Both the position numbers and the translations under genes were made by a program. From the IMG/VR virus record IMGVR_UViG_3300029518_000200: DNA of 64,000 nucleotides; one strand, given 5' to 3'. How positions within the stretch are numbered: the first letter of the stretch is position 1; every line of letters starts with the position of its first letter. Source of the stretch: a virus. Lineage: Duplodnaviria; Heunggongvirae; Uroviricota; Caudoviricetes. Below, in pieces: positions 11,621 to 38,064 of the stretch. The notes beneath the pieces are model-generated. The model was not told the DNA's origin. It saw nothing but the letters and a program-made list of their open reading frames with translations, and searched no databases.

Positions 11621-11631
11621 GGAGAAAAACA

Positions 11632-12232: not shown

Positions 12233-12275
12233 TTTGGACAAAATCTTCTTTGTAAATATTATATATGAAAAAGAT
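12233..12275 (+). promoter_or_regulatory. class-B sigma-70-like promoter TTGGAC-17-TATTAT (near-identical copy at 21001-21040)
   Basis: ttttggacaaaatcttctttgtaaatattatatat. Confidence 0.5.
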
Positions 12276-12400
12276 TAATTTGATGGGAATTACCGTGTAA
12301 AAAGTAATTTGGTCTTTTCAAATTACTGACAGATTTACCTGTTCACAGCGGAACCCATATTTATTATATAGGATCGTTTTAGACAAAGGAGAGAAGATTA

Positions 12401-14386
12401 ATGGCGGAAAGATGGATACAGGACAGGCATTATCTCATGGTGCCGTTTGATGATAAAGACAGAGCCAAGAGACTTGGTGCCAGATGGGATTTTGAAAAGA
12501 AGAAATGGTATTATACGGGCAATGATGGCAGGAGATTTGCTGAATGGATACCGTCTGAAGCAGCAAAGGTATCGGATTTGTCAGAAGAGCAGCAGCAGAT
12601 GATTGCGCTTGCAAAAGAGGGTAGGAATGTACTTGTTGACGCATGCATTGGAAGCGGAAAGACAACTACAATTCAGACTCTTTGTAATGAGGTGACTGAC
12701 AAACAGATACTATATCTTACCTACAACAGACTTTTAAAGGTGGATGCCAAGAGCAAAATTACTGAAAACAATGTAACTGTTACCAACTATCATGGCTTTG
12801 CTTCCATGATACTCAGAAATGCAGGTATATCCTCAGGTGTTGCTGAGCTCATACAGACTCTGCTTGCAAATAGTGAGAAGATTGTTATTCCAAGGTATGA
12901 TCTTTTAGTTATTGATGAGTATCAGGACATTGACAGGGAGATTTCCGAGATGCTTGAGTGTATTAAGGACCAGAATCCTGGCATACAAATTGTTGCTGTT
13001 GGCGATATGAAGCAGAAGATTTATGATAAAACAACGCTTAATGCGGCAGAATTCATCAGTGATTTTCTTGAAGACTTTGAGAGAGTATCGTTTACACAGT
13101 GTTTTCGTTTATCTGCACCTCTTGCAGCACGTCTTGGCCGCATATGGGAGAAGCCTATTAACGGCGTAAACAAAAACTGTACAGTCAGAACAATGGCGCT
13201 GGACGATACTGTCAGTTTTCTTGCTTCCCAGAATCCTGCTGACATATTATGTCTTGGCAAGCGTGACGGGCTGATGGCATCAGTGTTAAATGAATTGGAG
13301 AGAAAATATCCAAGCCGTTTTAACAAAAGAACTGTTTACGCAAGCATTAATGACAGGGATTCGGGTGGAGCAACAGAGCCTACAAAATCAACTGCCATTT
13401 TCACAACATTTGATGGCAGCAAGGGACTGGAGCGAAAGATATGTGTGGTATTTGATTACACCCTTGACTATTGGTCATCAAGAAGTCTTGCACCTGATAC
13501 AAAATATGAGATACTCAGGAATATTTTCTGTGTTGCAATGAGCAGGGGAAAACAGCAGATAATCATTGTTGCCAATGATCCAAATCAGGTATTATCTGAA
13601 GATATATTGTCAGTACCATTTAAGACAAGAAAAGAATATTTAAGAGCATTTCAGGTAAGCGAAATGTTTGATTTTAAGTATGACGAGGATATTGAGGACT
13701 GTTATTCGTTAATAAGAAAACGTAAGATAAGACGTTCTGACAATACGGTTATTGATATTGACTCAACTGACTGCATGATTGACCTGTCACCATGCATAGG
13801 CATTTATCAGGAAGCCAGCTTTTTCAAGAAGTATGATATTATGCAGCAGATAGAATATGTAAAGGATTTTCATGATGACAAAGCGCTGCTTCAGCTAAAA
13901 CCCGGTGCAACCATGGAAGACAAGGTATTATTCCTTACTGCATATGAGACTAAGCAGGACAGATATTATTGTCAGGTAAAACCGCCATTTATTACAGATG
14001 AGCAGTCTGAAGCCATTCACAAAAGACTTGCTACCGAGTTTACTGGTAACGAAAACGTGCAGCAGGACTTTACCATGAGTCTTTCTGATGCGTCAGGTGT
14101 GCCATACTGTATCTGTGGACGACCGGACGTTATCAAGAACAAAACTGTATTTGAGCTTAAATTTGTCAGTGAACTGGAACACAAACACTTTTTACAGTGT
14201 GCTGTTTACATGGTAGCATTTGGATTAAAAAAAGGAATTCTTTGGAATGTAAAAACCAATGAACGGTATTCAATATCAATTCCTGATGAAGAAATGTTTA
14301 TTCAGGCAGTAATGAAAACTGTTACCAAGGGATCCGCAAAGAGAGCGTACATTGAGACATGTGACTGCGCAAAAAGAGCATCATAA
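12401..14386 (+). CDS. UvrD-like SF1 helicase fused to a C-terminal PD-(D/E)xK (RecB/Cas4-like) nuclease. It carries an N-terminal DUF5710-like KW motif.
   Basis: Walker A CIGSGKTTTI, motif II LLVIDEYQD, and a C-terminal GRPDV..ELKFV..QCAVYMV nuclease signature. Confidence 0.7.
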   Translation: MAERWIQDRHYLMVPFDDKDRAKRLGARWDFEKKKWYYTGNDGRRFAEWIPSEAAKVSDLSEEQQQMIALAKEGRNVLVDACIGSGKTTTIQTLCNEVTDKQILYLTYNRLLKVDAKSKITENNVTVTNYHGFASMILRNAGISSGVAELIQTLLANSEKIVIPRYDLLVIDEYQDIDREISEMLECIKDQNPGIQIVAVGDMKQKIYDKTTLNAAEFISDFLEDFERVSFTQCFRLSAPLAARLGRIWEKPINGVNKNCTVRTMALDDTVSFLASQNPADILCLGKRDGLMASVLNELERKYPSRFNKRTVYASINDRDSGGATEPTKSTAIFTTFDGSKGLERKICVVFDYTLDYWSSRSLAPDTKYEILRNIFCVAMSRGKQQIIIVANDPNQVLSEDILSVPFKTRKEYLRAFQVSEMFDFKYDEDIEDCYSLIRKRKIRRSDNTVIDIDSTDCMIDLSPCIGIYQEASFFKKYDIMQQIEYVKDFHDDKALLQLKPGATMEDKVLFLTAYETKQDRYYCQVKPPFITDEQSEAIHKRLATEFTGNENVQQDFTMSLSDASGVPYCICGRPDVIKNKTVFELKFVSELEHKHFLQCAVYMVAFGLKKGILWNVKTNERYSISIPDEEMFIQAVMKTVTKGSAKRAYIETCDCAKRAS

Positions 14387-14428: not shown

Positions 14429-16225
14429 TTACTTATTTGCATCGTCCCATGCAGACTTGACATTATTCCAGACGTTCTTGGTTCTATTGTACAAGTAATC
14501 CGGAATAGTAAGCTCTCCGATAAATGCATTATTAAAAGCGCTTTCATTGAGATAAACATGGCCATCAAGATTGTCTGCAAAGGTCAGCGTGTCAATATTG
14601 GTGTCTGCGAATGCATTCTCGCTGATCATTACATTCTTCCATGAAACATCTGCTGTAACATTCAGGTTCTTAATGTAACACTCAACAAATGCACATTCAT
14701 CTACATTCCAGACTTTATCCGGCAGAATAATTTCTGTCATGAGTTTGTTTCCACCGCATCTGTAAAAGATATAAGGTGCAAAATACTCAATGGAACTTTC
14801 TGATAAGTCTGCCAGTTTAAGGTTTTTGCATTTATAAAAGGCATTGGGGCCAAGAATCTTGCAGCATTTTGACAGTTTGACAGATGTGAGTCCGCTGCAT
14901 TCAAAGGTACTTCCGCCAATATCAGCTGCAGATGAAAGGTCAATCTGTTTGAGGCTGTCTGTGCCATAAAATGCATATTTACCCAGCTGAACAATCTTGT
15001 CTGCATTATTCACCTTTTTAAGGGCTTCGCAGCTCATAAACATTCCCTCTGGAACTACAAACTCTTTTGCAGGAAGTGTTACTTCTTCGAGGTTACAGCA
15101 GTCCCTGAAACATTCAGTTTCTACGAACTCTACTGAGTCTGGAAGGGTAATACTCTTAAGGCCAGACTCGGAAAAAGCCTGTCTGCCAATTCTTGCCAGT
15201 TTCTTTGGCAGGACAATTTTTGTCAGTTGTCTAGTATTAAAAAATGCATAATTGCTGATTTTAGTGACATTCTCTGGTACTTCAAATTCTTTTAAGTCTG
15301 TGTAATCAAAAGCACCATAGCCAATGGATGTGATTTTGCTATCCATTCCTGTAAACGAAACTTTTTCAAGGCTGGTACAGTGAGAGAATAACGTCTGTGG
15401 AATTTCTTTTGTGTCCTGAGGAATGTTTGTGCCTCTTACTTCAATTACGGCTTCTGTCAGTTGATGACATCTATAAAAGACTTCCTTTGTTCCTTCAATG
15501 GAGTTCAAGTTTTCTACAGTGATGTGTTTTATTCCGCATCCTGAGAAAGCACTGTCGTTGACACGAATGTCCTTTGGCAGAACATCGAAATCAAGAGACT
15601 TACATCCCGAGAAACCACCTTTACCAATAGTCTTGATGCTGCTAAGATCAATGCTTTTAAGGTTTTCACAGAGCCTGAAACATATACCCGGAACCTTTAT
15701 GTCTGTTCCTTTAAATGTAACAGTTTCAAGGTTCTTACATTCATCAAACATTGCCATTGTAAGCGGAAAATTTGCAGGGATTGTTACCTGATTAAGTTTT
15801 GAATTGCTAAACGTGCGTGCGCCAACATATTCAGGATGTTCAGGCAGGTCCACTGACTCTATTCCGGAGTCTGTAAATGCATCAACGTCAAGATGCTTGA
15901 GATTCTTTGGCAGATGAACCTTTTTAAGCATCTTGCATCCGAAGAATGCCTGTGCCTCAATAATCTCAACACTTTCAGGGATGTTAATTTCCTTAAGGTC
16001 TGCGCACTCAAAGAATGCATTCGTCTCAATAGTTTTGAGCCCTTCTGGCAGCACTACTTTGGTAACATTCGATTTATTTGCGAATACGTTTGAACCAATA
16101 ATTGTAATGCCTTTTGGTACAATAACTGTGCCTGTTGCGTTACATTCGTATAAAACGTTATTATCTGTAACAAATATTTCCTCCTTAATGTTCTCTACGC
16201 CTGTTTTGATAATGTTTACTTTCAT
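14429..16225 (-). CDS. BspA-type leucine-rich-repeat (LRR_5) protein, no signal peptide
   Basis: about 20 repeats of the AF..C..L..I.IP..V..IG..AF pattern; paralog of the next two LRR genes. Confidence 0.7.
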   Translation of the reverse strand: MKVNIIKTGVENIKEEIFVTDNNVLYECNATGTVIVPKGITIIGSNVFANKSNVTKVVLPEGLKTIETNAFFECADLKEINIPESVEIIEAQAFFGCKMLKKVHLPKNLKHLDVDAFTDSGIESVDLPEHPEYVGARTFSNSKLNQVTIPANFPLTMAMFDECKNLETVTFKGTDIKVPGICFRLCENLKSIDLSSIKTIGKGGFSGCKSLDFDVLPKDIRVNDSAFSGCGIKHITVENLNSIEGTKEVFYRCHQLTEAVIEVRGTNIPQDTKEIPQTLFSHCTSLEKVSFTGMDSKITSIGYGAFDYTDLKEFEVPENVTKISNYAFFNTRQLTKIVLPKKLARIGRQAFSESGLKSITLPDSVEFVETECFRDCCNLEEVTLPAKEFVVPEGMFMSCEALKKVNNADKIVQLGKYAFYGTDSLKQIDLSSAADIGGSTFECSGLTSVKLSKCCKILGPNAFYKCKNLKLADLSESSIEYFAPYIFYRCGGNKLMTEIILPDKVWNVDECAFVECYIKNLNVTADVSWKNVMISENAFADTNIDTLTFADNLDGHVYLNESAFNNAFIGELTIPDYLYNRTKNVWNNVKSAWDDANK

Positions 16226-16426
16226 ATTGTATTTCCTCCTTTATTTTTGTTTAATATGAAAATTAGTTACAGGATAAATATGAGTTTTAATGGAAGACGA
16301 GCAAAAGATTATAGTAAAAGTGAAAGTTCTGTGATATAATAATTGTAGAAACAGAAAACGTTAATTTTGTATAAACTCCATCTTAATTATGCAGTTAATA
16401 ACATAAATTAAGAAAGGAGAGATGAT

Positions 16427-17206
16427 ATGAAATTAACGGAAGAAGAAAAGAAAGCGAAGGTTGAACCCTTCAGACCTATTGACGACGTATTCTTTGAAGC
16501 ATTAGCTCAAAACCCGAAAGTTTGTCAGGAGATTCTAAGAGTAATCTTGGAAGATGATAAACTTATCGTGGATGAGGTAATAACTCAATGCAGCGAAAAG
16601 AATATCTACGGCAGGTCAGTAAGGCTTGATGCTCTTTGTACATTGGGTACAGGAGAAAAGTGCAACATCGAAATTCAGAGGTCTGACAATGATGATCATC
16701 TAAAACGAGCGCGCTTTAATGCATCCAGCATAACAGTCAAATCGTCAGAGATTGGCAGCAAGTTTAAAGATGTTGTTGATGTGTGTATTGTTTATATATC
16801 CCAGTTTGATATATTCAGACATGGCAGAACGATATATCATGTTGACAAGGTGATCAGAGAGACTGGAATTGTAGTAGATGATGGACTTAAAGAAGTGTTC
16901 GTCAATACCGCAGTTAACGATGGTTCAACCATTTCGGAACTTATGTCTTGTTTTCTTGCTAAAGAAGTGGACAATCCTAAGTTTCCGATGCTGTCAAATG
17001 AGGTAAAACGGTTAAAAAACACGGAAGGAGGTCTTGATTCTATGTGTGATTTAATGGAGAAATACAATCAGGAGGCTGTCGATAAAAAGATTATTCCTGC
17101 GGTTAAAAAGCTTGCGAAAGCTGGCACATCTGTAAAAGATTTAGCTGAAGCATTTGATAAGTCAATAGATGAAATCGAGGCCATCCTTGATTCTTCTGAA
17201 GATTAA
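16427..17206 (+). CDS. Rpn/YhgA-like PD-(D/E)xK recombination-promoting nuclease / putative transposase
   Basis: PIDDVFF..L, D..C..G.G.KCNIEIQ motifs. Confidence 0.6.
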   Translation: MKLTEEEKKAKVEPFRPIDDVFFEALAQNPKVCQEILRVILEDDKLIVDEVITQCSEKNIYGRSVRLDALCTLGTGEKCNIEIQRSDNDDHLKRARFNASSITVKSSEIGSKFKDVVDVCIVYISQFDIFRHGRTIYHVDKVIRETGIVVDDGLKEVFVNTAVNDGSTISELMSCFLAKEVDNPKFPMLSNEVKRLKNTEGGLDSMCDLMEKYNQEAVDKKIIPAVKKLAKAGTSVKDLAEAFDKSIDEIEAILDSSED

Positions 17207-17269
17207 AATTAAAAATTGTAACCAAAAAGACGTCTTATTAATGAGGCGTCTTTTTTTTTGCATTATAAA

Positions 17270-17300
17270 AACAGAGCCCCCATAAAGAGGCTCTGTTAAC
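17270..17300 (-). terminator. rho-independent terminator after LRR gene 17304-19052
   Basis: aacagagcccccataaagaggctctgtt. Confidence 0.6.
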
Positions 17301-17303
17301 GGT

Positions 17304-19052
17304 TTACTGTATCTTATCAATTGCATCCTTAAATCTGTCATACATATGATCAGGTATAGCAAGTTTGCCAACTTTTGCGTCTTCAAATGCAAGAGAATGA
17401 ACGACAGTTTTCATCAGGTGATTAGTATCATCGGTAAATATTAATTCACTAATAAATGATTTGCTAAAAGCATTATTGCCTACATATGTACCTGCGTTTA
17501 TGGTAAGTTTGTTGAGCTTGGCTCTAAGAAAACAGCTATTGTCAAAAGCTGTAACATCCTGAGGGAGCTGAACATCTTTTAATCCTTTGCAGAAGCAGAA
17601 GCACTGGTAAGGAATTTCTTGTATTTTGCAGGCTTTCATATCTACTGTCTGAAGATTCTTGCAATGATGGAACGCTGATATGCCAAGTTGTGAAAATTTA
17701 TCAGAAAAGACTGCTTCACGAATACCTGTATAAGCAAACGCCATAAGATCTAATGATTGCAGCTTGCTGAAATCAAATGTTTCCAGATTTTTGCAACCAT
17801 AAAATGCATGGTCACAAATAGTGTCTACGTTCGGTACATTTACTGTTTTTAAGCTGCAGCAGTCTTCAAAAATTCCTGATGGAATTTTGGTAACTGATTC
17901 TGGCAGGGTAACTGCTGTTAGTTCTATGCAGTTATAAAATGCATAGTCCCCAAGCTTTTTTATCTTATTAGGAATAACAATGTCTTTTAATCCGCTTCCT
18001 GCAAATGCCATTGTCCCTATCTGTCTAAGGTTCTCAGGCAGATGAATATTTTCAATACCACTGTCGTAGAAAGCTTCTTTGCTGATTGTTTTGATTGTGT
18101 CAGGCAATGAAATTGTATTCAGGTTTTTTGTTTCTTTGAATGCAGCAGCTTCAATGACAGTCAGGTTTTTGGTACGTCCTGTAAACACAACTGTCTGTAA
18201 ATTTTTACATCCTTTAACCAATGCACTTGATACGGATGTTGGTCCGTCAGCAACATTGATTGTCAGTTTTTTCAGAGATTTACAGTCGGCGAATACCCTG
18301 TTGCAGACTTTAGAGATGTCTTCAATGATTACATCTGTGGCACCTGATTCCTCAAATGCACTTACTGCAACCAGTGTATCAGCCGGGATAGTACTTACTG
18401 ACAGATTCTGGCATCCGCGGAATGCTTCATCTTTTATGAGAGCAGTCTTTGTTATATCAATTTCTGTCAGATTAATGCAGTTACAGAAGCATCTTTCTGG
18501 AATTGTGATGTGGCTGCCAAGAAGATTGATACTATGAAGCTTCTGACATTTTTCAAACATTGCTGAATTGAGTGTGAAGTTTTCAGGAATATCAGTTGTC
18601 TCAATGTCTGTTCCGGCAAACACTTCGGTTCCAACAAAGTTGACGTTTTCTGGAAGAATTAGCTGCTTAATACCTGCTTCATAAAACGCATAGTCGCTAA
18701 TTTCCTTCATCGTCTTAGGCAGTATAACTGTCTCCAGAAAAAAGCATCCTTTGAAGGCTCCGTGTCCAATAACTTTAAGTGTCTCTGGGAAATTAATTTT
18801 TCTGAGCTTGGTACAAAAATTAAAAGCATCAGAACCAATAGTCTCAATTCCCTCTGGCAGAACAACTTCTTCTACATTAGTTCCTGCAAAACACGCTCTG
18901 CCAATAGTTTTTATACCCTTTGGGATGATGATTGTTTTTTGGCCATTTGGTGTGCACTTGATAAGTGTGTCATTATCATTTGTGAACACCGGTTCCTGTT
19001 TACAAGTTTCTCCTTTGACATATCCTTCTGTTTTGATAATTTGTAATTCCAT
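17304..19052 (-). CDS. BspA-type leucine-rich-repeat protein, no signal peptide
   Basis: LRR_5 repeats; conserved N-terminal ...KQEPVFT and C-terminal IPDHMYDRFK shared with 19163-20932. Confidence 0.7.
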   Translation of the reverse strand: MELQIIKTEGYVKGETCKQEPVFTNDNDTLIKCTPNGQKTIIIPKGIKTIGRACFAGTNVEEVVLPEGIETIGSDAFNFCTKLRKINFPETLKVIGHGAFKGCFFLETVILPKTMKEISDYAFYEAGIKQLILPENVNFVGTEVFAGTDIETTDIPENFTLNSAMFEKCQKLHSINLLGSHITIPERCFCNCINLTEIDITKTALIKDEAFRGCQNLSVSTIPADTLVAVSAFEESGATDVIIEDISKVCNRVFADCKSLKKLTINVADGPTSVSSALVKGCKNLQTVVFTGRTKNLTVIEAAAFKETKNLNTISLPDTIKTISKEAFYDSGIENIHLPENLRQIGTMAFAGSGLKDIVIPNKIKKLGDYAFYNCIELTAVTLPESVTKIPSGIFEDCCSLKTVNVPNVDTICDHAFYGCKNLETFDFSKLQSLDLMAFAYTGIREAVFSDKFSQLGISAFHHCKNLQTVDMKACKIQEIPYQCFCFCKGLKDVQLPQDVTAFDNSCFLRAKLNKLTINAGTYVGNNAFSKSFISELIFTDDTNHLMKTVVHSLAFEDAKVGKLAIPDHMYDRFKDAIDKIQ

Positions 19053-19126
19053 ATTATTTTCCTCCTTTATTATTATTTTTTAATATGATTACAGAATAAA
19101 TATGAGTTTTAATGAGAGATAAGTAA

Positions 19127-19160
19127 AAAACAGAGTCCCCATAGAGAGACTCTGTTAACA
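19127..19160 (-). terminator. rho-independent terminator after LRR gene 19163-20932
   Basis: aacagagtccccatagagagactctgtt. Confidence 0.6.
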
Positions 19161-19162
19161 GT

Positions 19163-20932
19163 TTACTGCATTTGGCTGATCGCTTTTTTAAACCTGCCAT
19201 ACATATGATCAGGAATAATGAGCCTGCCAACTTTTGCGCCTTCAAAAGCGGATATGTCAACAATAGTTCTTGTTGGACTGTCTGTATCATCAACAAATTC
19301 CAGTTCATCAATAACTGCTCCGCTGAGTGCATGGTAATCAATACGCATTCCAGCCTTTATTACGAGGCTGTTAAATTTTACTGACTCAAAACAACCGTCA
19401 GCGAACTTGCGAACATTTAACGGAAGCTTAATGTCTGTAAGCTTATTGCAATCTTCAAAACAGCGTGTTGATATTGTTTTGATATTATCGCAGGCTGACA
19501 TATCAACCGACTGAAGATCTTTGCAACTACAGAATATTGACGGCTGAAGCTTTGTCAGTTTGTTAGAAAGCACCGCTTTACGAATGCCTGTGCCTGCAAA
19601 CGATGTACTTCCAAGTTCTTTGATCTGACTGAAGTCAAAGGCTGTTAACATTTCGCAGTTACAGAAAGCGCTGTCACAAACAACTGTTATGTTTGGAGCA
19701 TTTACAGTTTTCAGCTTGCAACAGTCTATGAAAGCGTATCTTGGAATTGTCGTAATTGACTCTGGGAGTGTAACATCTGTTAACTCATAACATCTATTAA
19801 ATACCCCTCTGCCAAGCTTTGTTACTCTATCCGGAACAATAATACTTTTAATGCCTGATGAACCAAATGCACCATTACCTATCTGTCTAAGGTCCTCAGG
19901 CAGATGAATGTTTTTAATGCCACTGTTATAAAAAGCGCACTGCTCAATTGTTCGGATACTGTCTGGCAGTGAGATTTCTCTCAGCATTGTTGTTCCCATG
20001 AATGCAGCAGCTTTGATGCTTGACAGATTCTCAGTATGTCCTGTAAAAGCGACGGTCTGCAAACTTGTGCAGTGTGCTGCCAGTTCTTTAGGAATGCATA
20101 AATTATCGGCAATTGCTAGTCCGTCAGGAACATTGATTGTCAGTTTCTTCAGAGATTTGCAGTCAGAGAATGCTTTTTCCTCGACTTCTGAGATGTCTTC
20201 GATAGTAACATCTTCTACTCCTGTTTTCATAAATGCGCATGCACTGACATATGTATGGGCAGGAATGACATTTACTGACAGGTTGTGACACTCAAGGAAT
20301 GCAGAGTCCTTTATGAACAATGCTTTGCTGATGTCTATTTCTTCCAGATTAGTACAGTAGTAGAAGCATCTTTCCGGGATAAGCACCCAATTTGATTCAA
20401 AATTTACACTGCGAAGCTGCTGACAGTTAGAAAACATTGCTTTGTTCAGTCTGAGGTTTTTAGGAACGTTAATACTTTTGACCTTTATAGCACTAAAAAC
20501 ACTAATTCCTGTTGATAGAACATTTTTTGGATCCGGCAGAGTTAACTGTTTAATGCCTGCATTGTAAAAGGCGTAATCGCCTATTTTTGTTAGGGTTGTA
20601 GGCAGTATAACTTCTACCAGTGAACCACAATTCATAAAAGTCCTGTCCTTTACGGTCTCAAGTCCTTCAGGAAAATTAATCTTTTTGAGATTAAAACAGT
20701 CTGCAAATGCTTTTGACTCAATACACTTAATTCCCTCTGGCAGGATTACTTCTTCCACATCGGCACTGGCGAAGCACATTTTGCCGATAGTCTTCACATC
20801 TGCTGGGATTGTTATTGCTGTACAGCCGTTTAATTCACAGCTGATAAGCGTACTGTTCTCAATTGTGAATACTGGTTCCTGTTTATAGGTTTCTTTCTTC
20901 ATGCGTCCCGTTTCTTTGATAATTAATTCCAT
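19163..20932 (-). CDS. BspA-type leucine-rich-repeat protein, no signal peptide
   Basis: LRR_5 repeats; paralog of 17304-19052. Confidence 0.7.
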   Translation of the reverse strand: MELIIKETGRMKKETYKQEPVFTIENSTLISCELNGCTAITIPADVKTIGKMCFASADVEEVILPEGIKCIESKAFADCFNLKKINFPEGLETVKDRTFMNCGSLVEVILPTTLTKIGDYAFYNAGIKQLTLPDPKNVLSTGISVFSAIKVKSINVPKNLRLNKAMFSNCQQLRSVNFESNWVLIPERCFYYCTNLEEIDISKALFIKDSAFLECHNLSVNVIPAHTYVSACAFMKTGVEDVTIEDISEVEEKAFSDCKSLKKLTINVPDGLAIADNLCIPKELAAHCTSLQTVAFTGHTENLSSIKAAAFMGTTMLREISLPDSIRTIEQCAFYNSGIKNIHLPEDLRQIGNGAFGSSGIKSIIVPDRVTKLGRGVFNRCYELTDVTLPESITTIPRYAFIDCCKLKTVNAPNITVVCDSAFCNCEMLTAFDFSQIKELGSTSFAGTGIRKAVLSNKLTKLQPSIFCSCKDLQSVDMSACDNIKTISTRCFEDCNKLTDIKLPLNVRKFADGCFESVKFNSLVIKAGMRIDYHALSGAVIDELEFVDDTDSPTRTIVDISAFEGAKVGRLIIPDHMYGRFKKAISQMQ

Positions 20933-22094: not shown

Positions 22095-24197
22095 TTGAGA
22101 AAAGGTCAGGAGAAGCTGATTAAAAGAGCAGAAGAACTGCTGCCAAAAGAATTTGTGGAAAAGCTCATGGACGAGTCGTTTACCATTGAACAGCTTGAAT
22201 CGTTATTTCGCTGGATGTTTTGGTTCAAAGACTGCCCGGAAATACTTGATGACTGGGATACTTTTTGTCAGGATGCATTTTCTCTCAAGCATGTATATGC
22301 GATAACAGGAGACTGGCAGCGGACACATGAACTCTGTACTTACATGAAAGAAAAATTTCATGGCTGCAGGTATTATGTCATGGATGATTACTGGCAGGCA
22401 TTTGCTTACAGGATATATTCTGCGAAAAAGGATGATCAGTACTTATTCAACAAGGATGATATGACACATATCCTTGATTATATACGTGAAAATATTCTTT
22501 GCAACGATTATTCTGATTGCAAGTCGAGTAAGGACTTTTTAGGAGTTTCTGATGAATTCAGTGATTACAGTGACTTTATGTATAAATTTATAAAAGTAAA
22601 TTCTGGCATAGGGCTTGCGCTGGTATTAATTGAAGAAGGCACATGTTCTAAAGACATGGATGAAATCTTAAGGATTATACGGCTTACGTCTCAGATGGTT
22701 AACGGTGGCATGGAAGCGAGGGCACGGTGTTATATTAAAGCAGGCATTACTGACGAAGAGTGGATTCAGTACGAACAGATGATTGAGAATAATGTTTTTA
22801 ACAGGAATATTGTGGCAGCAGAAATTGCCTTCAAATATTATCCGGGCTTTAAGGATCTTGTTGACAGCATTATGGAAAGAAATGATGCATCCTTATATTT
22901 CATCAGTAACGAGCTGGGTAACGGTTACAGCAGTGGACGTATAAATCTTACTAACACTGAGTTTGTCGAGCCGATCTTTAATACATGTACTAAGCTTGAC
23001 TGCGCGGAATTTGGCAGCGAAAATATTGTGTCTGTTAATGAGCCAGTCATAAAGTTTTCATGGAAGATTACTTTCTCAGGAATATTCTTAACGTTTAGAA
23101 AATACGAAAGCACTGCCATATATAATGCACATTCGCGGGATGACTCCAATTATGGAGATGAACCATTATATTCGTGCCGACATGATGGACGCACTAAATT
23201 GGACAGAACATATCTGTTTACGAATGATTATAGCGTTCTTATGCAGATTCCATCAGGAAAATGGGTACCAGCCGGTTTTCATACAATTAACAATGATGTC
23301 AGAAAAGGATGCGGCTTTATAGGAACTATATTATCGTGGTTTTTTCAGCGTATTAAAGATGCAAAAGAATGTGTGTGGAAAGATATTATGGCATATTCTG
23401 TCAGGGATTATGACCTGCTGCCAGCATTTACCTGCAACGAGATTACTGCTGGGCACACTCTTAATGAAGTAATGAATGCCCATTATAAAAATGCAGGCTT
23501 TATCGACTGGAGCAGATGTGACCTGCGCCTTGGGTATCTCATTATGCAGGCCCTGCCACTTGTTAATGAAAAAAGCAGAAACTTTCTGCTGGCAAACAAA
23601 TATATGAGCTTTGAAGAATTCATGAAAACCTATTGTGTTCATGCCAAGAGAATTTACATTGATCCGGAAATAAAAAGAGTGGATTCAAGACGTTATGTTG
23701 TTAAAAGATTTTTATTTGAAATCATTCAAAAGAGAATTGGTGCTGACATAGATCCAATTATTTATGATTATATTGATATGTCAGAAATGCTGCACAGAAA
23801 GATTTCAATCATGTTTACATCTGAAAAGAAGGTTAATGATGCGCATGATGATCTGGCGAAGGAGCTTACGGCTAAAAACACTCCAAATGTAAAGGTTCCC
23901 AAGAATTCAAAGTTTAATCGTCTCGCAAAGCTGCTGCCAGATGATATGGAATGGATTAAATCTAAAAGGAGACTTGTTCGGGAAGGCAGTGAAATGCACA
24001 ACTGTGTTGCCGAATATGCGAATAAAATCAACAAAGATTCCTGTGCTATATATTCATTTGTGTATAACAACAAGCGGTATACAGTAGAATTTGTTGCATA
24101 CAAAAACAGGTATTCCATTAAGCAGCTCTATGGCGTCTGCAACAGCGAACCGGAAGCAGGCGTTGAGGATTACGTAAAAGGATTTTTAGCAGAATAA
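22095..24197 (+). CDS. large hypothetical protein (700 aa). The C-terminal block EGSEMHNCVAEY...KRYTVEF may be PcfJ-like; this is uncertain.
   Basis: long ORF followed by a rho-independent terminator. Confidence 0.5.
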   Translation: MRKGQEKLIKRAEELLPKEFVEKLMDESFTIEQLESLFRWMFWFKDCPEILDDWDTFCQDAFSLKHVYAITGDWQRTHELCTYMKEKFHGCRYYVMDDYWQAFAYRIYSAKKDDQYLFNKDDMTHILDYIRENILCNDYSDCKSSKDFLGVSDEFSDYSDFMYKFIKVNSGIGLALVLIEEGTCSKDMDEILRIIRLTSQMVNGGMEARARCYIKAGITDEEWIQYEQMIENNVFNRNIVAAEIAFKYYPGFKDLVDSIMERNDASLYFISNELGNGYSSGRINLTNTEFVEPIFNTCTKLDCAEFGSENIVSVNEPVIKFSWKITFSGIFLTFRKYESTAIYNAHSRDDSNYGDEPLYSCRHDGRTKLDRTYLFTNDYSVLMQIPSGKWVPAGFHTINNDVRKGCGFIGTILSWFFQRIKDAKECVWKDIMAYSVRDYDLLPAFTCNEITAGHTLNEVMNAHYKNAGFIDWSRCDLRLGYLIMQALPLVNEKSRNFLLANKYMSFEEFMKTYCVHAKRIYIDPEIKRVDSRRYVVKRFLFEIIQKRIGADIDPIIYDYIDMSEMLHRKISIMFTSEKKVNDAHDDLAKELTAKNTPNVKVPKNSKFNRLAKLLPDDMEWIKSKRRLVREGSEMHNCVAEYANKINKDSCAIYSFVYNNKRYTVEFVAYKNRYSIKQLYGVCNSEPEAGVEDYVKGFLAE

Positions 24198-24277
24198 TTG
24201 TGAGGAGAGTATTGGTTAAAAACTGATACTCTTTTTTTATGTTTATTGACGGGATTATTTGTCAGCAAGAAAGACTA

Positions 24278-25416
24278 GTATTAAGAATATATGATACCGG
24301 ATAGTTGCATACAGTATCAGCAATAAGCAATACTGTTTACAATTAAATAGTATCAAGAGTATATGATACTAATTGATTTGCTGACAAGGGTGGGCAGTAT
24401 TATTGGTATCAGTAATATATGATACCGGATTATTGCGGACAGTATTAGCTATGTATGATACTAATTGCTGGCGAATGGTATTACTAATATATGATACTTT
24501 TTAAGGAATGATTGTCAGCAGGATAAATGGTATCAGGTATGTATGATACTAAATGATTGTTAACAGTATTAGTATATACGTAATACTTTTGAAGATATAT
24601 GGTATCATACATGTGTGATACTATTTTGATAAGAAGAAACTGGTATCAGTATATATGTAATACCAGATAGCTGTAAACGGTATTACTAATATATGATACT
24701 AATTGTTGGCAAATGGTATTACTAATATATGATACTTTTTAAAGAATGATTGTCAGCAGGATAATTGGTATCAGGTATGTATGATACTAAATAATTGTAA
24801 ACGGTATTAGTATATACGTAATACTTTTTGAAAGTGTTTGGTATCAGCAATATGTGATACTAAATTATTTGCTGACAGGATAGCTTGTTAACGGTATTAC
24901 TATATACATGATACTATTTGCGGCAAAATGGTATTACTAATATGTAATACTTTTCAGGGATATTTGGTATTAGTAATATATGTTACCGGATAATCGGGTA
25001 TCAAGAATATATGATACCAATTAATTGCAAACAGTATTAGTATATACATAATACTTTTAAGCCAGTCTGGTATCAGATATGTGTAATACTATTTTAATAG
25101 GAAGAAACTGGTATCAGTATATATATGATACTAATTGATTGTAAACGGTATTAGTATATATGTGATACTTTTTGAAGGTATTTGGTATCAAGCATGTGTG
25201 ATACTAAATAGTTTGTTATGAGAATATTTGCTGACGGTATTAGTAATAAATGATACTAATTTGTGGCAGATGGTATTAGTAATAGATAATACTTTTCAGG
25301 AATATTTGGCAGCAGTGAGTTTGGTATTAAACATGTATGATACTAATTAACTGTAAACGGTATTAGTATATATATAATACTTTTTGAAAATATATGGTAT
25401 CAAGAATATATGATAC
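24278..25416. repeat. array of about 29 palindromic sites GGTATYA-N8-TGATACT, spaced about 35-50 bp apart, with a higher-order period of about 240 bp
   Basis: read directly; examples ggtatcagtaatatatgatacc, ggtatcaggtatgtatgatact, ggtattactaatatatgatact. Confidence 0.9.
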
Positions 25417-25900
25417 TAAATAACTTGCTGCGAGGGTATTTGTTAACACGCGGAAGCAGTATTTATTAGTGAGAAATGACTTGTTAAGGATTATTGCGGG
25501 GAAACAGGCATTGTTTAAGGGATTATTGGCAGGAGATAAGATAAATATAATAAGGAAAAATGCTAGGGGAAATCTGGCAAGAAGATATTTTGTTACGAGT
25601 TAATTGCACACGAAAAATACTGTAAATACTAGGAGTTAATGGGAAACAAGGGATTAAGAAGACTTTGTGTGGAAAGATACTGGTAACAAAAGGATTGTTG
25701 CGGAGCGAGGCGTGTTAAATATTAACTTTTGGGGAGTTAACTTAATACTAAACTTATTATTTTACAAGAGGGCTTAGGCAGGGGGCCGTCAAAATAATAA
25801 GTCAGGAAACCTTCTTATCAGGAAAGTAATTTGGGACAGAAGAGATTAAAAAACATCAACTGCTGAGAAGTAATTGCTGACGGATAGGTGTTGACAAGAA
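25417..25900. repeat. purine-rich non-coding tract with reiterated short motifs (ATTATTGSSGG, TTGCTGACRG, GTTAA)
   Basis: no ORF; the motifs continue the spacer motifs of the palindrome array. Confidence 0.6.
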
Positions 25901-25928
25901 AGATGCCTAGAAGAGTGGTAAAGAAAAA

Positions 25929-25978
25929 TAGTAGTATACACGCTACTACTTTTAAAATAGTAGTAGATTTTTATCTAC
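25929..25978 (+). promoter_or_regulatory. two adjacent hairpins (AGTAGTA-7-TACTACT and AGTAGAT-4-ATCTACT), candidate oriT/nic region upstream of the relaxase gene
   Basis: perfect 7-bp inverted repeats read in the sequence. The position upstream of the mob gene is typical of MOBV plasmids. Confidence 0.4.
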
Positions 25979-26048
25979 TTCTTTTAAATTTGTCTAAAAT
26001 CCATATTTGTATCACATTAAAAAATGATAATTAAAGAGGTGATACAAA

Positions 26049-27224
26049 ATGGGTGGAACAGCGTCTATTAGAATTGTACCAATTCATTCAAAAACAACTA
26101 TACAGAGAACAGAATTACATAATGAACGAAAAGAAGGAGACCTTACCGGTAAACATATAGACAAAAATAAAATCATACATAATAAGACTCTCATTGGCAG
26201 TGCAAACGATGACTTTTACAGAAAGGTTGTAGAAAAGATAACAGAACAGGAGTTCACAGATGACGGATGGAATATTTCAGAATCAGCATTTAATAAGGAA
26301 AACTTAAGGTTTGCAAATGGCAGAAAGGTGCGGTCAGATGCAATTCTTGCAGCAGAAGCCATAGCTCATTATCCCGGTCAGATGAATATAACTGAAATGG
26401 GAGACCGTTATCCTGCTAATCCGGATGAATTTCAAAAGTGGCAGGACAATACTATTAAATTTTTGCAGAACAAATTCGGTAAAGAAAATGTTATCAATGC
26501 GGTTTTGCATATGGATGAAAGCTCACCGCATATCCATGCTGTAGTGATTCCAATATGTAAGAATAAAAATAATGAGAATACGTTGAAATTTTGTCATTAT
26601 GTTGATGGTAAGAAAGGCTGTGCACAGCTTCAGACTGAATATGCAAAAGCAGTCGGTTACGAACGCGGTGTCAGCCAGCAGAACGTTAACTATCAGAGCA
26701 TCAAGCAGGCAAGGGCAATACTTACTCAGAGTGTAGGTGCCGAACTGCCGCCGGTTGAAAAAAGAGAGTCAGCTAAAGAATACCGTGAAAGGGTAAATCC
26801 TGAATATGAAAAGGTGAGAGTACAGAGAGACGTAGCAACTGCTGATGTTAAGAAATATAAGAATGTTCAGAAACAGGCTGCTAAAAAGGATCAGATTATT
26901 GAGTCACAAAAACAACAGATTGATGATTTAAACAAGCGCTTAAAGATTGCTGAAGCTGAAGCACTGAAATATAAAGAGGAAAAGGAAATGGAGAAGCTTG
27001 GCATGATGATAAGCGATAATACTCAGGAGGAGAATGAACTTTATTACAGACTTCAGAGAAACTATATTACTCTTGGCGAAAAGTATGTTATGGAGCACAG
27101 CAAGACTCAGGATATTATTGACAAAGACAATGATGGTGTTGACGACAGAATTACAGGTTTTAGGGATGAAGACCATGATGGCATTGATGACAGGTATGAA
27201 GAACCAGAGGATATTGGCAATTAA
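26049..27224 (+). CDS. MOBV-family (Mob_Pre/MobM-like) relaxase
   Basis: HMDESSPHIHAVV matches the HxDE...PHxH metal-binding motif; N-terminal ...R.V.IHSK...H.ER; coiled-coil C-terminus. Confidence 0.7.
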   Translation: MGGTASIRIVPIHSKTTIQRTELHNERKEGDLTGKHIDKNKIIHNKTLIGSANDDFYRKVVEKITEQEFTDDGWNISESAFNKENLRFANGRKVRSDAILAAEAIAHYPGQMNITEMGDRYPANPDEFQKWQDNTIKFLQNKFGKENVINAVLHMDESSPHIHAVVIPICKNKNNENTLKFCHYVDGKKGCAQLQTEYAKAVGYERGVSQQNVNYQSIKQARAILTQSVGAELPPVEKRESAKEYRERVNPEYEKVRVQRDVATADVKKYKNVQKQAAKKDQIIESQKQQIDDLNKRLKIAEAEALKYKEEKEMEKLGMMISDNTQEENELYYRLQRNYITLGEKYVMEHSKTQDIIDKDNDGVDDRITGFRDEDHDGIDDRYEEPEDIGN

Positions 27225-35049: not shown

Positions 35050-36213
35050 ATGAAGAATATATTTACACATCACAAGCAGCCGAATTACCCATATTATGAC
35101 ATCCCAAATGCAAAATGCAATATTGTAATAGGCAGTGCGGGTATGGGAAATACATCAGGATATACAAAACCTGTATTGTATAATGCGAAGCTGGGAATAT
35201 CTTATATCGCTACTGGATTTTTTGATGACAGAAATTTTAAAAGTTCTGCTGACAATTGTTCCCATAAAGTAAAATATTTCAATTTCAGTGGCAGAAACAA
35301 CTCATTTCATTACAATCCACTGAGATACATTAAAAATGCACAGGATGCTATGGAACTGGCACAAATTATGTCAGACTCAGTATCATTGACAAGCAAAAAA
35401 GAATTTTCTGTTATCAAACATCTTAAAGACGAATTACTGGCAGCGCTTATTCTGTATGTCTGTGAAGAATATAAAGATGACTGGAGCATGAGAAATCTTG
35501 CAGAGCTGGACAGTTTACTCCATTCATCATTCATCTGCCAGAGTGGATTTGATGAAATTAATGTTAACAGCGAAGCAGGCAAATTGTATTCACATGTAAA
35601 AGAAATTTGCAGCTCAGATTTTTTAGACAAACTCTTTTATGAGTTAAATGTCGATATTATGTGTCTGAAATTAATTGATAAATATGACATTTTAAACGAT
35701 GATAACTCTTTTACGGATGTAATTGATTTTGAGGATATATATAAGGAAGATACAATTATATTCATCAATGAGTATATTGATGATATAAGCAGTTCTTATT
35801 CTTACACATTTATAGCATCAGCATTTGTAAATCAGGCTATGAATGCGTATAGAAAAAAGCAGGAGAGCGGTAATAAGGTAAGATTTGTCCTTGATGAATT
35901 CCAGAGTCTTTATATTCCAGATCTTAATGACAAGATTGAAGTTGTTACAGAAAATAACTGTGAGGTTGATATTATAAGCCAATCGTTTTATCAGATTGCT
36001 GATGCTCCGAAAATCATTGACTTATGCGACAATATCATCTGCATGGGAACAATAGATTGTAATGCTGCTAAACTTATTTATGCTTTGTCAAATATTAATG
36101 TATTCAAATTAAGTGCAACAGAATGTATCGTAGTCGAAAAGGATAACAATATTACACATGATAATGTTATGAAGATAGTTTCATATAATAGAAAAAAGAA
36201 ATGGATTCTCTAA
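35050..36213 (+). CDS. VirD4/TraG-like coupling-protein ATPase domain. It has no N-terminal TM region and its Walker A lysine is replaced (GSAGMGNTSG).
   Basis: YNPL block, ALILYV helix, Walker B FVLDEF and the QS..Q block IISQSFYQI. Confidence 0.5.
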   Translation: MKNIFTHHKQPNYPYYDIPNAKCNIVIGSAGMGNTSGYTKPVLYNAKLGISYIATGFFDDRNFKSSADNCSHKVKYFNFSGRNNSFHYNPLRYIKNAQDAMELAQIMSDSVSLTSKKEFSVIKHLKDELLAALILYVCEEYKDDWSMRNLAELDSLLHSSFICQSGFDEINVNSEAGKLYSHVKEICSSDFLDKLFYELNVDIMCLKLIDKYDILNDDNSFTDVIDFEDIYKEDTIIFINEYIDDISSSYSYTFIASAFVNQAMNAYRKKQESGNKVRFVLDEFQSLYIPDLNDKIEVVTENNCEVDIISQSFYQIADAPKIIDLCDNIICMGTIDCNAAKLIYALSNINVFKLSATECIVVEKDNNITHDNVMKIVSYNRKKKWIL

Positions 36214-36216
36214 AAA

Positions 36217-36254
36217 ATACAGCAGTATCACAATTAAATATGATACTGCTGTAT
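36217..36254. terminator. bidirectional terminator with a 14-bp-arm hairpin and T-run. The hairpin contains a GTATCA-N10-TGATAC site.
   Basis: atacagcagtatca...tgatactgctgtat followed by tttttt. Confidence 0.6.
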
Positions 36255-36266
36255 TTTTTATTCGTC

Positions 36267-37370: not shown

Positions 37371-37530
37371 ATAATTTCCTCCGTAAATGTAATCTGTTTT
37401 TATAAAATAATTATAACAAGAAATCCCATTTTTTACAATACAACATGTAGCGTGTAATGATTTACAATATACCATATATAGGACTAAATTAAGCCAAGAA
37501 CCCCATATGTAGTATTTAAGGTATCTCGTT

Positions 37531-37556
37531 ATTCGCATAATTGAAATTATGCGAAT
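37531..37556. repeat. perfect 26-bp palindrome ATTCGCATAATT-GA-AATTATGCGAAT, 160 bp upstream of the integrase start
   Basis: read directly. Confidence 0.8.
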
Positions 37557-37689: not shown

Positions 37690-38064
37690 TCACGCTTCCT
37701 TTTCTTTGTATTTCTTTGTCAGATTTCTTATAAGCAGTCCAGTCATTGCAATTATTATTGCAGCATCAATATCTGCCAGCAAATGTTTTGCCATCATAAA
37801 ACCTGTTTTCATTTGTCTGCATACGTTATTCATTATGACTATATTTCCTGTGCAAAACATCATTAAAACAAAATCTGTACCGACAAGTATCATTTTTAAT
37901 TTCGATACACATCCATTATTTATGCAGATTCTTGTGTAAGCAAATAATCCTGTCAGCCTTAAAATAATGGCAACGAAATTATACTGCATCTGCCATGATG
38001 CAAACAAAGCTAACGCTATCAATATAAACTGCAATGCTGTTGCAGATTTTTCATCAACTTTCAT
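37690..38064 (-). CDS. small polytopic membrane protein (GtrA-like?)
   Basis: about 4 TM helices, Lys-rich C-terminus; last gene of a three-gene membrane-protein operon. Confidence 0.35.
   Translation of the reverse strand: MKVDEKSATALQFILIALALFASWQMQYNFVAIILRLTGLFAYTRICINNGCVSKLKMILVGTDFVLMMFCTGNIVIMNNVCRQMKTGFMMAKHLLADIDAAIIIAMTGLLIRNLTKKYKEKEA

Follow-up and report, generated by a model that had tools for sequence, protein, structure and literature searches.

An ordered array of GTATCA dyads is inherited with a MOBV relaxase gene and its oriT-like region in gut Firmicutes

What is the role of a long run of small palindromes, in non-coding DNA, upstream of a relaxase gene? The question is raised by the stretch of DNA analysed here, which is 64,000 nucleotides in length and is referred to as the window. 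A first-pass annotation had described about 29 palindromic sites, 35-50 bp apart, and interpreted these as a candidate ParR/ParB-type centromere or iteron origin. The array and its flanks are as follows.

24202..24236, plus strand: intrinsic terminator of a PcfJ-like gene (terminator scan; site list)
24278..25416, no strand assigned: dyad array, 29 units (motif scan; orthologous arrays in 25+ loci)
25417..25920, plus strand: non-coding, strand-skewed tract (composition; no conserved ORF)

The description of the sites was accurate. A motif scan, allowing up to one mismatch, identified exactly 29 dyads of the form GTATYA-N8/9-TRATAC between positions 24278 and 25416. The spacer is N8 in 21 sites and N9 in 8. 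Perfect dyads number 27, compared to 0.003 expected from composition-matched shuffles, and there are none in the remaining ~62 kb of the window. Similarly, half-sites occur at 49 per kb inside the array and at ~2 per kb elsewhere. The consensus is tGGTATCA-nnAATATA-TGATACT for N8 units and GGTATTA-GTATATAYR-TAATACT for N9 units. All 29 dyads share one orientation. Centre-to-centre distances are quantised; 36-36.5 bp is commonest, with ~52, 41.5, 31, and 56 bp also found, close to the spacing first reported. Note that 36 bp corresponds to 3.4 helical turns. Hence, the dominant spacing is out of phase. The DNA between dyads falls into a few recurring classes, of 16, 15-16, 21, and 32 nt. On a larger scale, segments 24415-24590 and 24653-24828 are 88% identical and 238 bp apart, in agreement with the proposed period of about 240 bp. 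There is also a repeat family of 146 nt, with four copies in the array, and a 124-bp period (TRF). About one third of the units are directly followed by a run of T4-5. As had been argued, this is not a CRISPR; the units are dyads, the spacers belong to recurring classes, and there are no cas families.

A second motif had been said to recur between sites and to continue into the adjoining tract. The first part holds. Thus, TTG-N4-CA is found 14 times in the array (versus 1.0 +/- 1.0), within the 16-nt spacer class TAATTG....CAAAYG. Continuation into the tract is weak, with one occurrence against 0.3 expected. Loose TTGCTGAC-like matches number 6 there, compared to 1.1 expected.

We found no conserved ORFs in the array or tract, no Rfam match for the region at a permissive threshold, and no DNA similarity to the region in plasmid and phage collections. 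For the wider window, the only matches, and partial ones, are to unannotated human-gut 'Bacteriophage sp.' contigs. A promoter scan of the region detected modest enrichment (24 versus 16.5 +/- 3.8) and no consistent promoter. The array stems, with just 1-2 G-C pairs each, failed a terminator scan. An assembly artefact was rejected as the source of the array, since four independent assemblies have an identical-length gap with 0-5 mismatches. Copy-number variation due to misassembly is unlikely for the window-type array, though individual short-read contigs may still be affected. In one assembly, an IS66 element is found inside the array. Hence, contiguity of the array is not strictly required. 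A paired-site pattern with four matches in viral contigs was attributed to chance; all are in a coding tandem repeat (MSTVSETTDTNK x3) of an 853-aa protein.

The ORF upstream of the array (22095-24197) is PcfJ-like (Pfam PcfJ). The stem of its terminator itself contains a dyad, GTATTG-N9-TGATAC, and the array begins directly afterwards. On the other side, the tract is G/A-rich, as first described; positions 25431-25900 are 63% purine, with 123 G and 49 C. There are 10 GGG runs on the plus (relaxase-sense) strand versus 0 on the minus. The length of the tract is fixed among relatives. Hence, the last dyad is always ~650 bp from the relaxase ATG. Purine richness is not universal, since the counterpart spacer in locus L043 is T-rich. 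A hidden small accessory gene in the tract was considered and rejected; reading frames are not conserved among the window, L005, and L008.

Between the tract and the end of the relaxase gene, the following features are apparent.

25930..25979, minus strand: oriT-like set of three overlapping inverted repeats (conserved loop, co-varying stems, likeness to pMV158)
25930-25950, minus strand: IR2-like hairpin with invariant loop, part of the oriT-like set
25934-25946 (plus-strand coordinates), minus strand: 13-mer GTAGCGTGTATAC, invariant in 20 loci
25943-25966, minus strand: bridging inverted repeat, part of the oriT-like set
25962-25979, minus strand: IR1-like hairpin, part of the oriT-like set
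26006..26048, plus strand: dyad with 10-bp arms, TTTGTATCAC-N23-GTGATACAAA (sequence; site at 26009)
26049..27224, plus strand: MOBV (Mob_Pre) relaxase, 391 aa (Pfam, NCBIfam, PDB profile, fold match)

Assignment of the gene to the MOBV family, made in the first-pass annotation, is borne out by profile and fold matches. The protein scores 64 bits against Pfam PF01076 (Mob_Pre, cut-off 25.5) and 96.2 bits against NCBIfam MobV, slightly below the cut-off of 100. It has a profile match to MobM (4LVI, E=8e-8) and its AF2 model resembles the MobM fold (Foldseek, TM 0.73). The relaxase domain, residues 1-205, is followed by two helices, the first of 80 residues, and then by an acidic tail, DNDGIDDR. 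Motifs H24-N-x-R27 and H154-M-D-E...P160-H-x-H163 (HxxR and HxDE...PHxH) are invariant. As in MobM, dimerisation through a coiled coil is predicted, with the two relaxase domains on flexible tethers. The dyad at 26006..26048 encloses the relaxase Shine-Dalgarno sequence and terminates at the ATG. Some close relatives have this dyad and others lack it (last-dyad distance to mob of 40 versus ~650); it may be an autoregulatory site or RNA hairpin.

The 20 loci that share the invariant 13-mer include one with a relaxase only 67% identical. In the oriT-like stems, 6 of 14 pairs have changed on both sides, which was reached by 0 of 500 shuffles. Conversely, the variable Y/R arm position of the array dyads does not covary (Fisher p=0.45). 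Hence, it is sequence that is selected in the array and structure that is selected at oriT. The oriT of pMV158 (IR1/IR2/IR3, nic AGTGTG/TTATAC) is described in PMC3105389. By analogy with GTGTG/T of pMV158, the nick would be made in the minus strand, between 25939 and 25938. If oriT is read on this strand, the array would lie on the leading side of the nick. The oriT loop also contains TAGCGT, which may correspond to the ssoA CS-6 box.

Relaxase orthologs from 100% down to ~40% identity all have an array of the same half-site upstream, with 10-35 units. The window and 20 close relatives have 15-35 sites each. Locus L007, with an 81% identical relaxase, has 14. Loci L008, L011, L034, and L043 (39-42% identity) have 10-12 sites with N6 spacers; a 6-bp spacer is found in a Roseburia porci clade. 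Related ATCA-core repeats accompany relaxases with 32-35% identity. For L013 the repeat is TTATCA-N6-TGAGTA, and for L010 it is GTATCAGTGTAG, which resembles the pMV158 nic 10-mer GTATAGTGTG. No arrays were found beside remoter relaxases. Between families, the half-sites are conserved while spacers and tract are not. The position and orientation of the array, relative to the relaxase gene, are constant among loci.

All array-bearing loci have just one protein in common, the relaxase. Thus, when all window ORFs were compared (tblastn) with L008, L011, L034, L043, L013, and L010, covering +/-10 kb per locus, the relaxase alone was shared. Loci L026, L027, and L028 share only 24754-27202 with the window (96% identity), and their contexts are otherwise different. 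This segment runs from within the array, through tract and hairpins, to the end of the relaxase gene. Similarly, homology of L008 and L034 to the window begins at the array edge. We conclude that array, tract, oriT, and relaxase gene form a conserved, modular cassette, transplanted between elements. The carriers are integrative or mobilizable elements, and one very large element, of human-gut Lachnospiraceae-type Firmicutes. Arrays are also found in chromosomally integrated elements (Roseburia porci and metagenomes), adjoined by an integrase gene, a tRNA gene, and rimP-nusA-infB. We also considered whether the integrase binds the dyads, which would then be core- or arm-type recombination sites, and rejected this; integrases are 97% identical inside a clade and 19% identical between the N8/9 and N6 clades, and yet the arms are the same. 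A minimal 3.5-kb element (array-Mob-Int) in Roseburia was also rejected, since L034 has no att repeat within 8700-13100.

Because the conserved element is a dyad half-site, in an ordered multi-site array, the dyads very probably constitute a protein-recognition array. The data support a functional tie to the neighbouring relaxase, a candidate binder named in the first-pass annotation and still the best one. Our preferred explanation, held tentatively and at a little under even probability, is that the array serves in cis, as the part of an oriT/relaxase mobilization cassette that proteins bind, with the cassette's own relaxase as its most likely binder. The order is dyad array, strand-skewed tract, pMV158-like oriT, then MOBV relaxase gene, travelling as a unit. 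A sequence-specific dimer, most likely the relaxase, would occupy the 15-35 dyads cooperatively. Two flexibly tethered relaxase domains would tolerate N6, N8, and N9 spacers. Once occupied, the array would form a stretch of nucleoprotein, leading the nick, that could keep the local relaxase concentration high in cis. It could also govern nicking and the local topology of DNA at oriT, as well as expression of the relaxase. If the array is such a platform, a mobilizable element could enforce cis-preference, or regulate nicking, without an accessory protein.

Some observations count against a relaxase platform. Linear dsDNA is a poor substrate for MobM binding. The commonest spacing, 36 bp, is out of helical phase, and an IS66 insertion in the array is tolerated in one assembly. 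The AF2 model of the relaxase has no separate dsDNA-reading domain, and dyads of the N10 class occur independently of the relaxase. Furthermore, the oriT stems (AGTAGTA, AAGTGTA, and AGTTGTA) are unlike the array arm GTATCA. Hence, the sequences offer no direct reason why the relaxase domain should recognise the dyads.

The closest known system is that of pMV158. MobM is a dimer that binds the IR2 dyad (GTATA-N6-TATAC) on dsDNA, resulting in autorepression, and has a secondary regulatory site (PctII) elsewhere on the plasmid. The cassette has a relaxase of the same family and an oriT directly upstream of the mob gene. As in pMV158, its oriT consists of three inverted repeats that overlap, and a hairpin loop carries the nic-like motif G(Y)GTG/T-ATAC. 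However, the single oriT of pMV158 spans ~40 bp and there is just one secondary site, whereas the cassette adds 15-35 dyads over 0.5-1.6 kb and then a 0.5-kb skewed tract. Furthermore, the nic motif of pMV158 is on the coding strand, and that of the cassette is opposite the relaxase gene strand. The cassette's dyad arms also differ from its own oriT stems, as described above.

Multi-site relaxosome regions are a second point of comparison. In F and R1 there are TraM sites sbmA-C and TraY sites, RP4 TraK wraps ~180 bp beside nic, and oriT2 of pAD1 has short direct repeats. The TcpK boxes of pCW3 are a further multi-site accessory region (PMC6137059). Such regions resemble the array in having several ordered sites beside nic, where a nucleoprotein complex controls nicking or docking. 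They differ in having 2-6 sites and a dedicated small protein encoded next to oriT; the cassette lacks an accessory gene, and its sites number up to 35. The clt loci of Streptomyces contain 8-bp recognition repeats for TraB. Like the array, clt is a cis-acting transfer locus in which repeated short motifs are read, in that case by the transfer protein itself. In that system, however, an FtsK-like translocase transfers dsDNA, neither a relaxase nor a nick is involved, and the hosts and proteins are unrelated.

A bolder possibility, which we consider doubtful, is that the locus represents an unrecognised class of cis-acting conjugation element, consisting of a skewed tract on the leading side of oriT and 15-35 relaxase-specific dyads in an array that can expand. 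It would belong to one MOBV relaxase subfamily of gut Firmicutes, and its tract would be R-loop-prone or structure-free. This DNA would leave the donor first, and the array could serve the relaxase in cis, either as a reservoir or as a platform for loading. Alternatively, the array might work in the recipient, as a decoy or as a platform for priming. Small mobilizable elements could so gain an advantage when competing for the transfer machinery of a helper, and relaxase-mediated ('Pre'-type) recombination between units might tune array length.

Does the array instead act as single-stranded DNA? Array and tract might function solely in the single-stranded state, as a complementary-strand origin (an sso/ssi-like multi-hairpin priming site) or as ssDNA promoters, in the DNA that enters the recipient first. 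A minus-strand nick would make tract and array the first ~1.7 kb to be transferred. The units share one orientation, strand composition is strongly asymmetric, and the arms tolerate loops of 6-10 nt and longer, which is typical of stem recognition. ICEBs1 sso1, pMV158 ssoU/ssoA, and Frpo/ssi elements are likewise non-coding, orientation-fixed, and hairpin-capable, and adjoin a relaxase gene or oriT, as ssos do in ICEBs1 and RCR plasmids. Leading-region ssDNA elements (PMC11541004) are a possible parallel for the position of the array. In addition, deviations from symmetry in the array favour G.T on the plus strand, though this is a hint only, because the units are not independent and a G>C mutational skew could produce the bias. 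The plus strand also folds 30 kcal/mol more stably than the minus. Together, these two properties leave room for a single-strand or RNA role. However, both favour the plus strand, which is not the strand transferred under the polarity proposed above. Known ssos span ~200 bp, with three long stem-loops, conserved boxes, and no arrays, and can be recognised from their sequence similarity; here, there are 15-35 stems of 6-7 bp, without covariation at the variable position. The region has no similarity to entries in Rfam or in the plasmid and phage collections. Structure alone also leaves conservation of the 6-bp arm, across 40%-identical relaxases, unexplained. We regard a single-strand signal as unlikely. 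If correct, the concept of leading-region ssDNA elements would reach Gram-positive mobilizable elements.

A protein encoded outside the cassette might occupy the array. The host might supply it, as a nucleoid or regulatory protein, or the helper conjugative element might, as an accessory or coupling factor; its task would be to dock mobilizable DNA to the transfer machinery or to silence the region. GTATCA dyads are over-represented elsewhere in the window (7 versus 0.55 for control hexamers), so some trans factor in the system reads the arm. Dyads of the same half-site, with a fixed N10 spacer, occur at promoters and terminators elsewhere in the window. The lack of an obvious dsDNA-reading domain in the relaxase, and the mismatch between oriT stems and dyad arms, also favour an outside binder. 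Furthermore, wHTH accessory proteins for repeated oriT boxes are known on clostridial plasmids (TcpK, PMC6137059). On the other hand, the dyad spacer follows the relaxase clade (N8/9 versus N6), and a single host factor should keep one spacing. No shared candidate protein is found within +/-10 kb, and the cassette boundaries coincide with array and relaxase. Hence, an external factor seems quite unlikely, for docking and for silencing alike. The HTH protein encoded at 43129-43632 had been put forward as a binder. This can be set aside; it is without homologs in the other array-bearing loci, gives a weak LuxR/TraJ-like signal only, and its own promoter bears an N10-class site, unlike the array units.

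It is improbable that the array is a transcriptional insulator, made of tandem weak hairpin and U-tract units that keep transcripts of upstream genes from reading through into oriT, or a structured leader RNA of the relaxase gene. The T-runs after units, the bona fide terminator built from the same arms at the start of the array, terminator-like GTATCA hairpins at 36225 and 56209, and tolerance of G.T (G.U) on the sense strand are all in keeping with this. There is also a precedent near an ICE end, the terminator-insulator of Tn916 (PMC11658703). However, stems so poor in G-C pairs fail the terminator scan, arm sequence is conserved rather than pairing, no promoter is evident, and 15-35 copies are far above what insulation needs.

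A functionless satellite, amplified from a palindrome by slippage or unequal recombination and tolerated beside oriT, is highly improbable. Such DNA could vary from 15 to 35 copies between lineages, have mosaic and duplicated blocks, and tolerate IS66. It should not keep its arms beside relaxases that have diverged to 40%, in surroundings that have diverged, with constant position and orientation, as part of a transplanted cassette that is stable across samples.

Neither partition nor vegetative replication accounts for the array, and the centromere and iteron readings are scarcely credible. Type II, III, and Ib centromeres (parC-ParR, tubC-TubR, and omega heptad arrays) have ~10 or more short repeats, inverted ones included, that are cooperatively coated. 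Together with iteron clusters, these do resemble ordered short repeats in non-coding DNA, and one carrier may be a replicon of ~300 kb that would need partition. However, the ParA/ParM or Rep gene that such a function calls for, and that the annotation had proposed to look for, is absent from the ~60 ORFs of the 64-kb window, where no ParA/CbiA, ParM/actin-like, TubZ, ParB, RHH, or Rep family was detected. Nor was any partition family, NTPase or adaptor, found within +/-10 kb of related loci. There is no DnaA box between 24068 and 30190 and none enriched overall, cumulative GC skew turns at ~36 kb, away from the array, and dyads spaced by 36 or 52 bp are not in-phase direct iterons of 17-22 bp. 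The same arrays are in small integrated elements, beside integrase, tRNA gene, and rimP, and are inherited with the relaxase rather than any maintenance gene.

Among the conjugative hitch-hikers of gut Firmicutes, integrative and mobilizable elements are the most numerous, and their cis-acting DNA is almost unstudied. The array is a conserved non-coding partner of the relaxase/oriT cassette and is apparently undescribed; this large structure has no described counterpart in pMV158, the best-studied MOBV system. GTATCA dyad arrays upstream of Mob_Pre genes are a simple signature for oriT regions in metagenomes. The cassette is also common. Briefly, the relaxase cluster has 620 member sequences, which are near-identical, and the exact protein is present in 171 collection blocks.

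The non-coding region upstream of the MOBV (Mob_Pre) relaxase gene is dominated by an array of palindromic sites. Relevant features are as follows.

Features of the array region, and sites elsewhere in the window with the same arms
1.85 kb between the PcfJ-like gene terminator (24202-24236) and the relaxase gene (26049-27224, plus strand): non-coding stretch
Array unit, N8 type: consensus tGGTATCA-nnAATATA-TGATACT
Array unit, N9 type: consensus GGTATTA-GTATATAYR-TAATACT
25930-25979: three overlapping inverted repeats, between the purine-rich tract and the relaxase gene
42983-43075: three N10 sites, at intervals of 36 and 35 bp, on the promoter (TTACTG...TGATATAAT) of ORF 43129-43632
36225-36246, 37887-37908 and 56209-56230: single N10 sites

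A pattern scan, permitting at most one mismatch, returned exactly 29 GTATYA-N8/9-TRATAC sites at 24278-25416, in agreement with the first-pass annotation's count of about 29. Perfect sites number 27, compared to 0.003 expected from composition-matched shuffles, and none occurs in the other ~62 kb of the window. All units have the same orientation and are of two types (N8 and N9). Centre-to-centre distances are quantised at 36-36.5 bp, with minor classes of ~52, 41.5 and 31 bp, and the DNA between dyads consists of a small set of recurring spacer classes. A suggested higher-order period of ~240 bp was borne out by 176-nt blocks, 88% identical and 238 bp apart. The second motif noticed initially is enriched within the array (14 copies of TTG-N4-CA, where 1.0 +/- 1.0 are expected) but its persistence through the next 480 bp is faint. 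This adjoining tract is indeed purine-rich (63% purine; G 123, C 49), with GGG runs on the plus strand only. No Rfam family matched the array or tract, and the non-coding region has no conserved ORF.

About 60 window ORFs were scanned against Pfam, and the matches are those of a large mobile element from a low-GC Firmicute of the gut. They comprise PcfJ, the relaxase, two T4CP-like fragments, a tyrosine integrase, RecJ, SSB, 5'-3' exonuclease, NAD ligase, RadC, dUTPase, methylases, NlpC/P60, a Macro domain and BspA-type LRR proteins. The ParA/ParM or Rep gene anticipated for a centromere or iteron origin was not found; these ORFs include no ParA, ParM, TubZ, ParB or Rep family. Furthermore, there are no DnaA boxes near the array, and the turning point of cumulative GC skew lies by the integrase (near 36 kb) rather than at the array. 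Together, these observations argue against the centromere or iteron origin first proposed.

In tblastn searches with all window ORFs, the relaxase was the sole protein common to the window and distant array-bearing loci, whose integrases are not orthologous. Three loci (L026, L027 and L028) share only 24754-27202 with the window, at 96% identity. This stretch starts within the array and ends with the relaxase gene. Similarly, homology between loci L008 and L034 starts at the array edge. Judged from these boundaries, the array and relaxase together belong to a transplantable cassette. In several carriers, the integration site is beside a tRNA gene and rimP-nusA. Array length varies among lineages but is stable in any given lineage: in four independent assemblies the gap is the same length, with 0-5 mismatches. 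In one assembly, L016, an IS66-family element (5730-8515) divides the dyad array 10 + 21, the locus being otherwise 96-98% identical. The element has three ORFs (132, 118 and 541 aa), ends in inverted repeats GTAAACGTCAAACC...GGTTTGACGTTTAC and has a duplicated target, TTTTGAAA.

In the public collection, 171 blocks contain the exact relaxase, whose 90% cluster has 620 members; the contigs reach 328 kb. Homologs are from metagenomes and one isolate only. The largest contigs with the exact relaxase, from independent samples (L047, L048, L049 and cluster members), cluster at 293-328 kb (328,327; 323,372; 316,341; 309,955; 301,552; 292,869), which hints at a complete ~300-kb replicon as carrier. 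A same-arm array lies immediately upstream of every relaxase ortholog down to ~40% identity. Twenty close relatives and L005 (89% relaxase identity) have 15-35 sites each, L007 (81%) has 14, and L008, L011, L043 and L034 (Roseburia porci MUC/MUC-530-WT-4D) have 10-12, with a 6-bp spacer (GTATCAC-YWAG-RTGATAY). At 32-35% identity, related repeats are found upstream: TTATCA-GCAAGA-TGAGTA in L013 and TGTGTATCAGTGTAGGTG, then a very G-rich tract, in L010. Nothing comparable precedes relaxases more remote than this group. The L010 region (8420-9740; relaxase 34% identical) consists, in order, of a C-rich block (CCCTCCTC...), five of the repeats and a stretch of ~900 bp in which G-rich units (GGGTGGGTGTGGGAGTG) recur; the counts of GGG runs are 46 versus 9, and three G4-like clusters are all on the relaxase-sense strand. 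A skewed tract is present in the window, L005, L008, L011, L034, L010 and L031, though polarity is not universal, the L043 equivalent being T-rich. In L043 (1930-2960; a ~40% relative), 4-5 copies of a second, TTCTGCAGAATTCTTCAGAA-like palindrome are interspersed with the N6 dyads, which suggests a second binding activity in this family.

The inverted repeats at 25930-25979 resemble an oriT. A 13-mer, GTAGCGTGTATAC (minus-strand reading), is invariant in 20 loci, including one with a 67%-identical relaxase. In the flanking stems, 6 of 14 pairs have both-sided (compensatory) changes and 93% of cells are paired; such covariation was reached by 0/500 shuffles and was absent from slid controls. 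The minus-strand layout matches the pMV158 oriT (GCACACACTTTATGAATATAAAGTATAGTGTG/TTATACTTTA; PMC3105389), with an IR1-like hairpin (7-bp stem, 4-nt loop) then an IR2-like hairpin (GCGTG/TA in the loop). However, pMV158 is nicked on the mobM coding strand (PMC5863519), whereas the window's nic-like motif is opposite to the relaxase coding strand. With this polarity, and provided that the pMV158 comparison is valid, transfer would begin with the tract and array and end with the relaxase gene. A further dyad, TTTGTATCAC-N23-GTGATACAAA (26006-26048; 10-bp arms), surrounds the Shine-Dalgarno sequence of the relaxase gene and extends up to its ATG. Roughly half of the near-identical loci have this dyad and the rest lack it; it may form a hairpin that acts in translation or autoregulation.

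Between array families, only the arms are conserved. At their variable fifth position, combinations (C-G 26, T-G 19, T-A 13, C-A 11) do not covary (Fisher p=0.45), in contrast to the adjacent oriT stems. This pattern indicates sequence-specific recognition of the array, for which pairing alone is an insufficient account. In the predicted relaxase structure, a MobM-like relaxase domain precedes two helices, the first of 80 residues, and an acidic tail, an arrangement compatible with a MobM-like coiled-coil dimer. Paired, flexibly tethered DNA-binding domains of such a dimer could fit N6, N8 and N9 spacers. On duplex DNA, MobM binds the dyad IR2 (GTATA-N6-TATAC), repressing its own promoter; a secondary MobM regulatory site lies in another part of pMV158. 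Since the relaxase is the only co-inherited protein, the arms are conserved and MobM behaves in this way, we favour a predicted relaxase-binding platform, forming part of an extended oriT. That specific mechanism is offered tentatively, with slightly more doubt than confidence. A narrower claim is probably correct, namely that the array serves the mobilization cassette as a cis element and is a site of neither partition nor replication. Full-text literature searches found no description of dyad arrays adjoining MOBV relaxases, and we rate the region as an oriT/relaxosome of known type with unprecedented expansion. The relaxase C-terminus (27080-27224) carries a duplicated DNDG(I/V)DDR motif in its acidic tail. 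Relaxases of the array-bearing clade conserve this motif, which is disordered in the predicted structure and may be a secretion or coupling-protein signal.

Three points count against a relaxase platform: the cassette's own oriT stems are unlike GTATCA, MobM binds linear duplex DNA poorly and the 36-bp unit spacing is out of helical phase. The main rival is an sso-like or leading-strand function. However, known ssos span ~200 bp and have long stem-loops that are conserved (PMC4595007), and with the inferred polarity the strand that pairs better would not be the one transferred. Two features of the plus strand could reflect a role as single strand or RNA, or simply the G>C mutational skew: its folding is more stable than that of the minus strand by 30 kcal/mol, and symmetry departures favour G.T on it (57 vs 22 in the N8/9 family; 15 vs 2 at N6 family core positions). 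Recognition by a host or helper factor is possible.

The same arms recur in the window as a second class with fixed geometry, GTATCA-N10-TGATAC. Outside the array there are seven GTATCA dyads, five of them N10, whereas 632 control hexamers average 0.55. Perfect N10 sites are all right of 36.2 kb. The product of the ORF at 43129-43632 has a weak LuxR/TraJ-like HTH signal. Sites at 36225 and 56209 are cores of far longer palindromes (within 36209-36260 and 56200-56240), such as AAAAAATACAGCAGTATCA-N10-TGATACTGCTGTATTTTTT, and the former resembles a bidirectional terminator, lying where the T4CP-like and integrase genes converge. Terminators upstream of arrays share these arms (24202-24236 in the window; ~8936-8972 in L008).

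Gene orientation and cumulative GC skew both flip at ~36 kb, beside the integrase gene (36267-37538, minus strand). In the small element L027, 7 kb separate the cassette from a downstream gene for a 97%-identical integrase (17939-19222), on the relaxase strand. Hence, nested or adjacent elements may together make up the window. Two ORFs ~28 kb apart (6265-7077 and 35050-36213) have partial coupling-protein matches (T4SS-DNA_transf positions 91-313 and 252-346, plus TraG-D_C) and could represent a split, duplicated or decayed coupling protein. Three BspA-type leucine-rich-repeat proteins of ~590 aa are encoded in succession at 14429-20932 (minus strand), and a fourth LRR protein, with a fused guanylate-kinase-like N-terminus, at 49980-51440. 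Among otherwise syntenic loci these genes are highly variable, with 77-88% identity and rearrangements.
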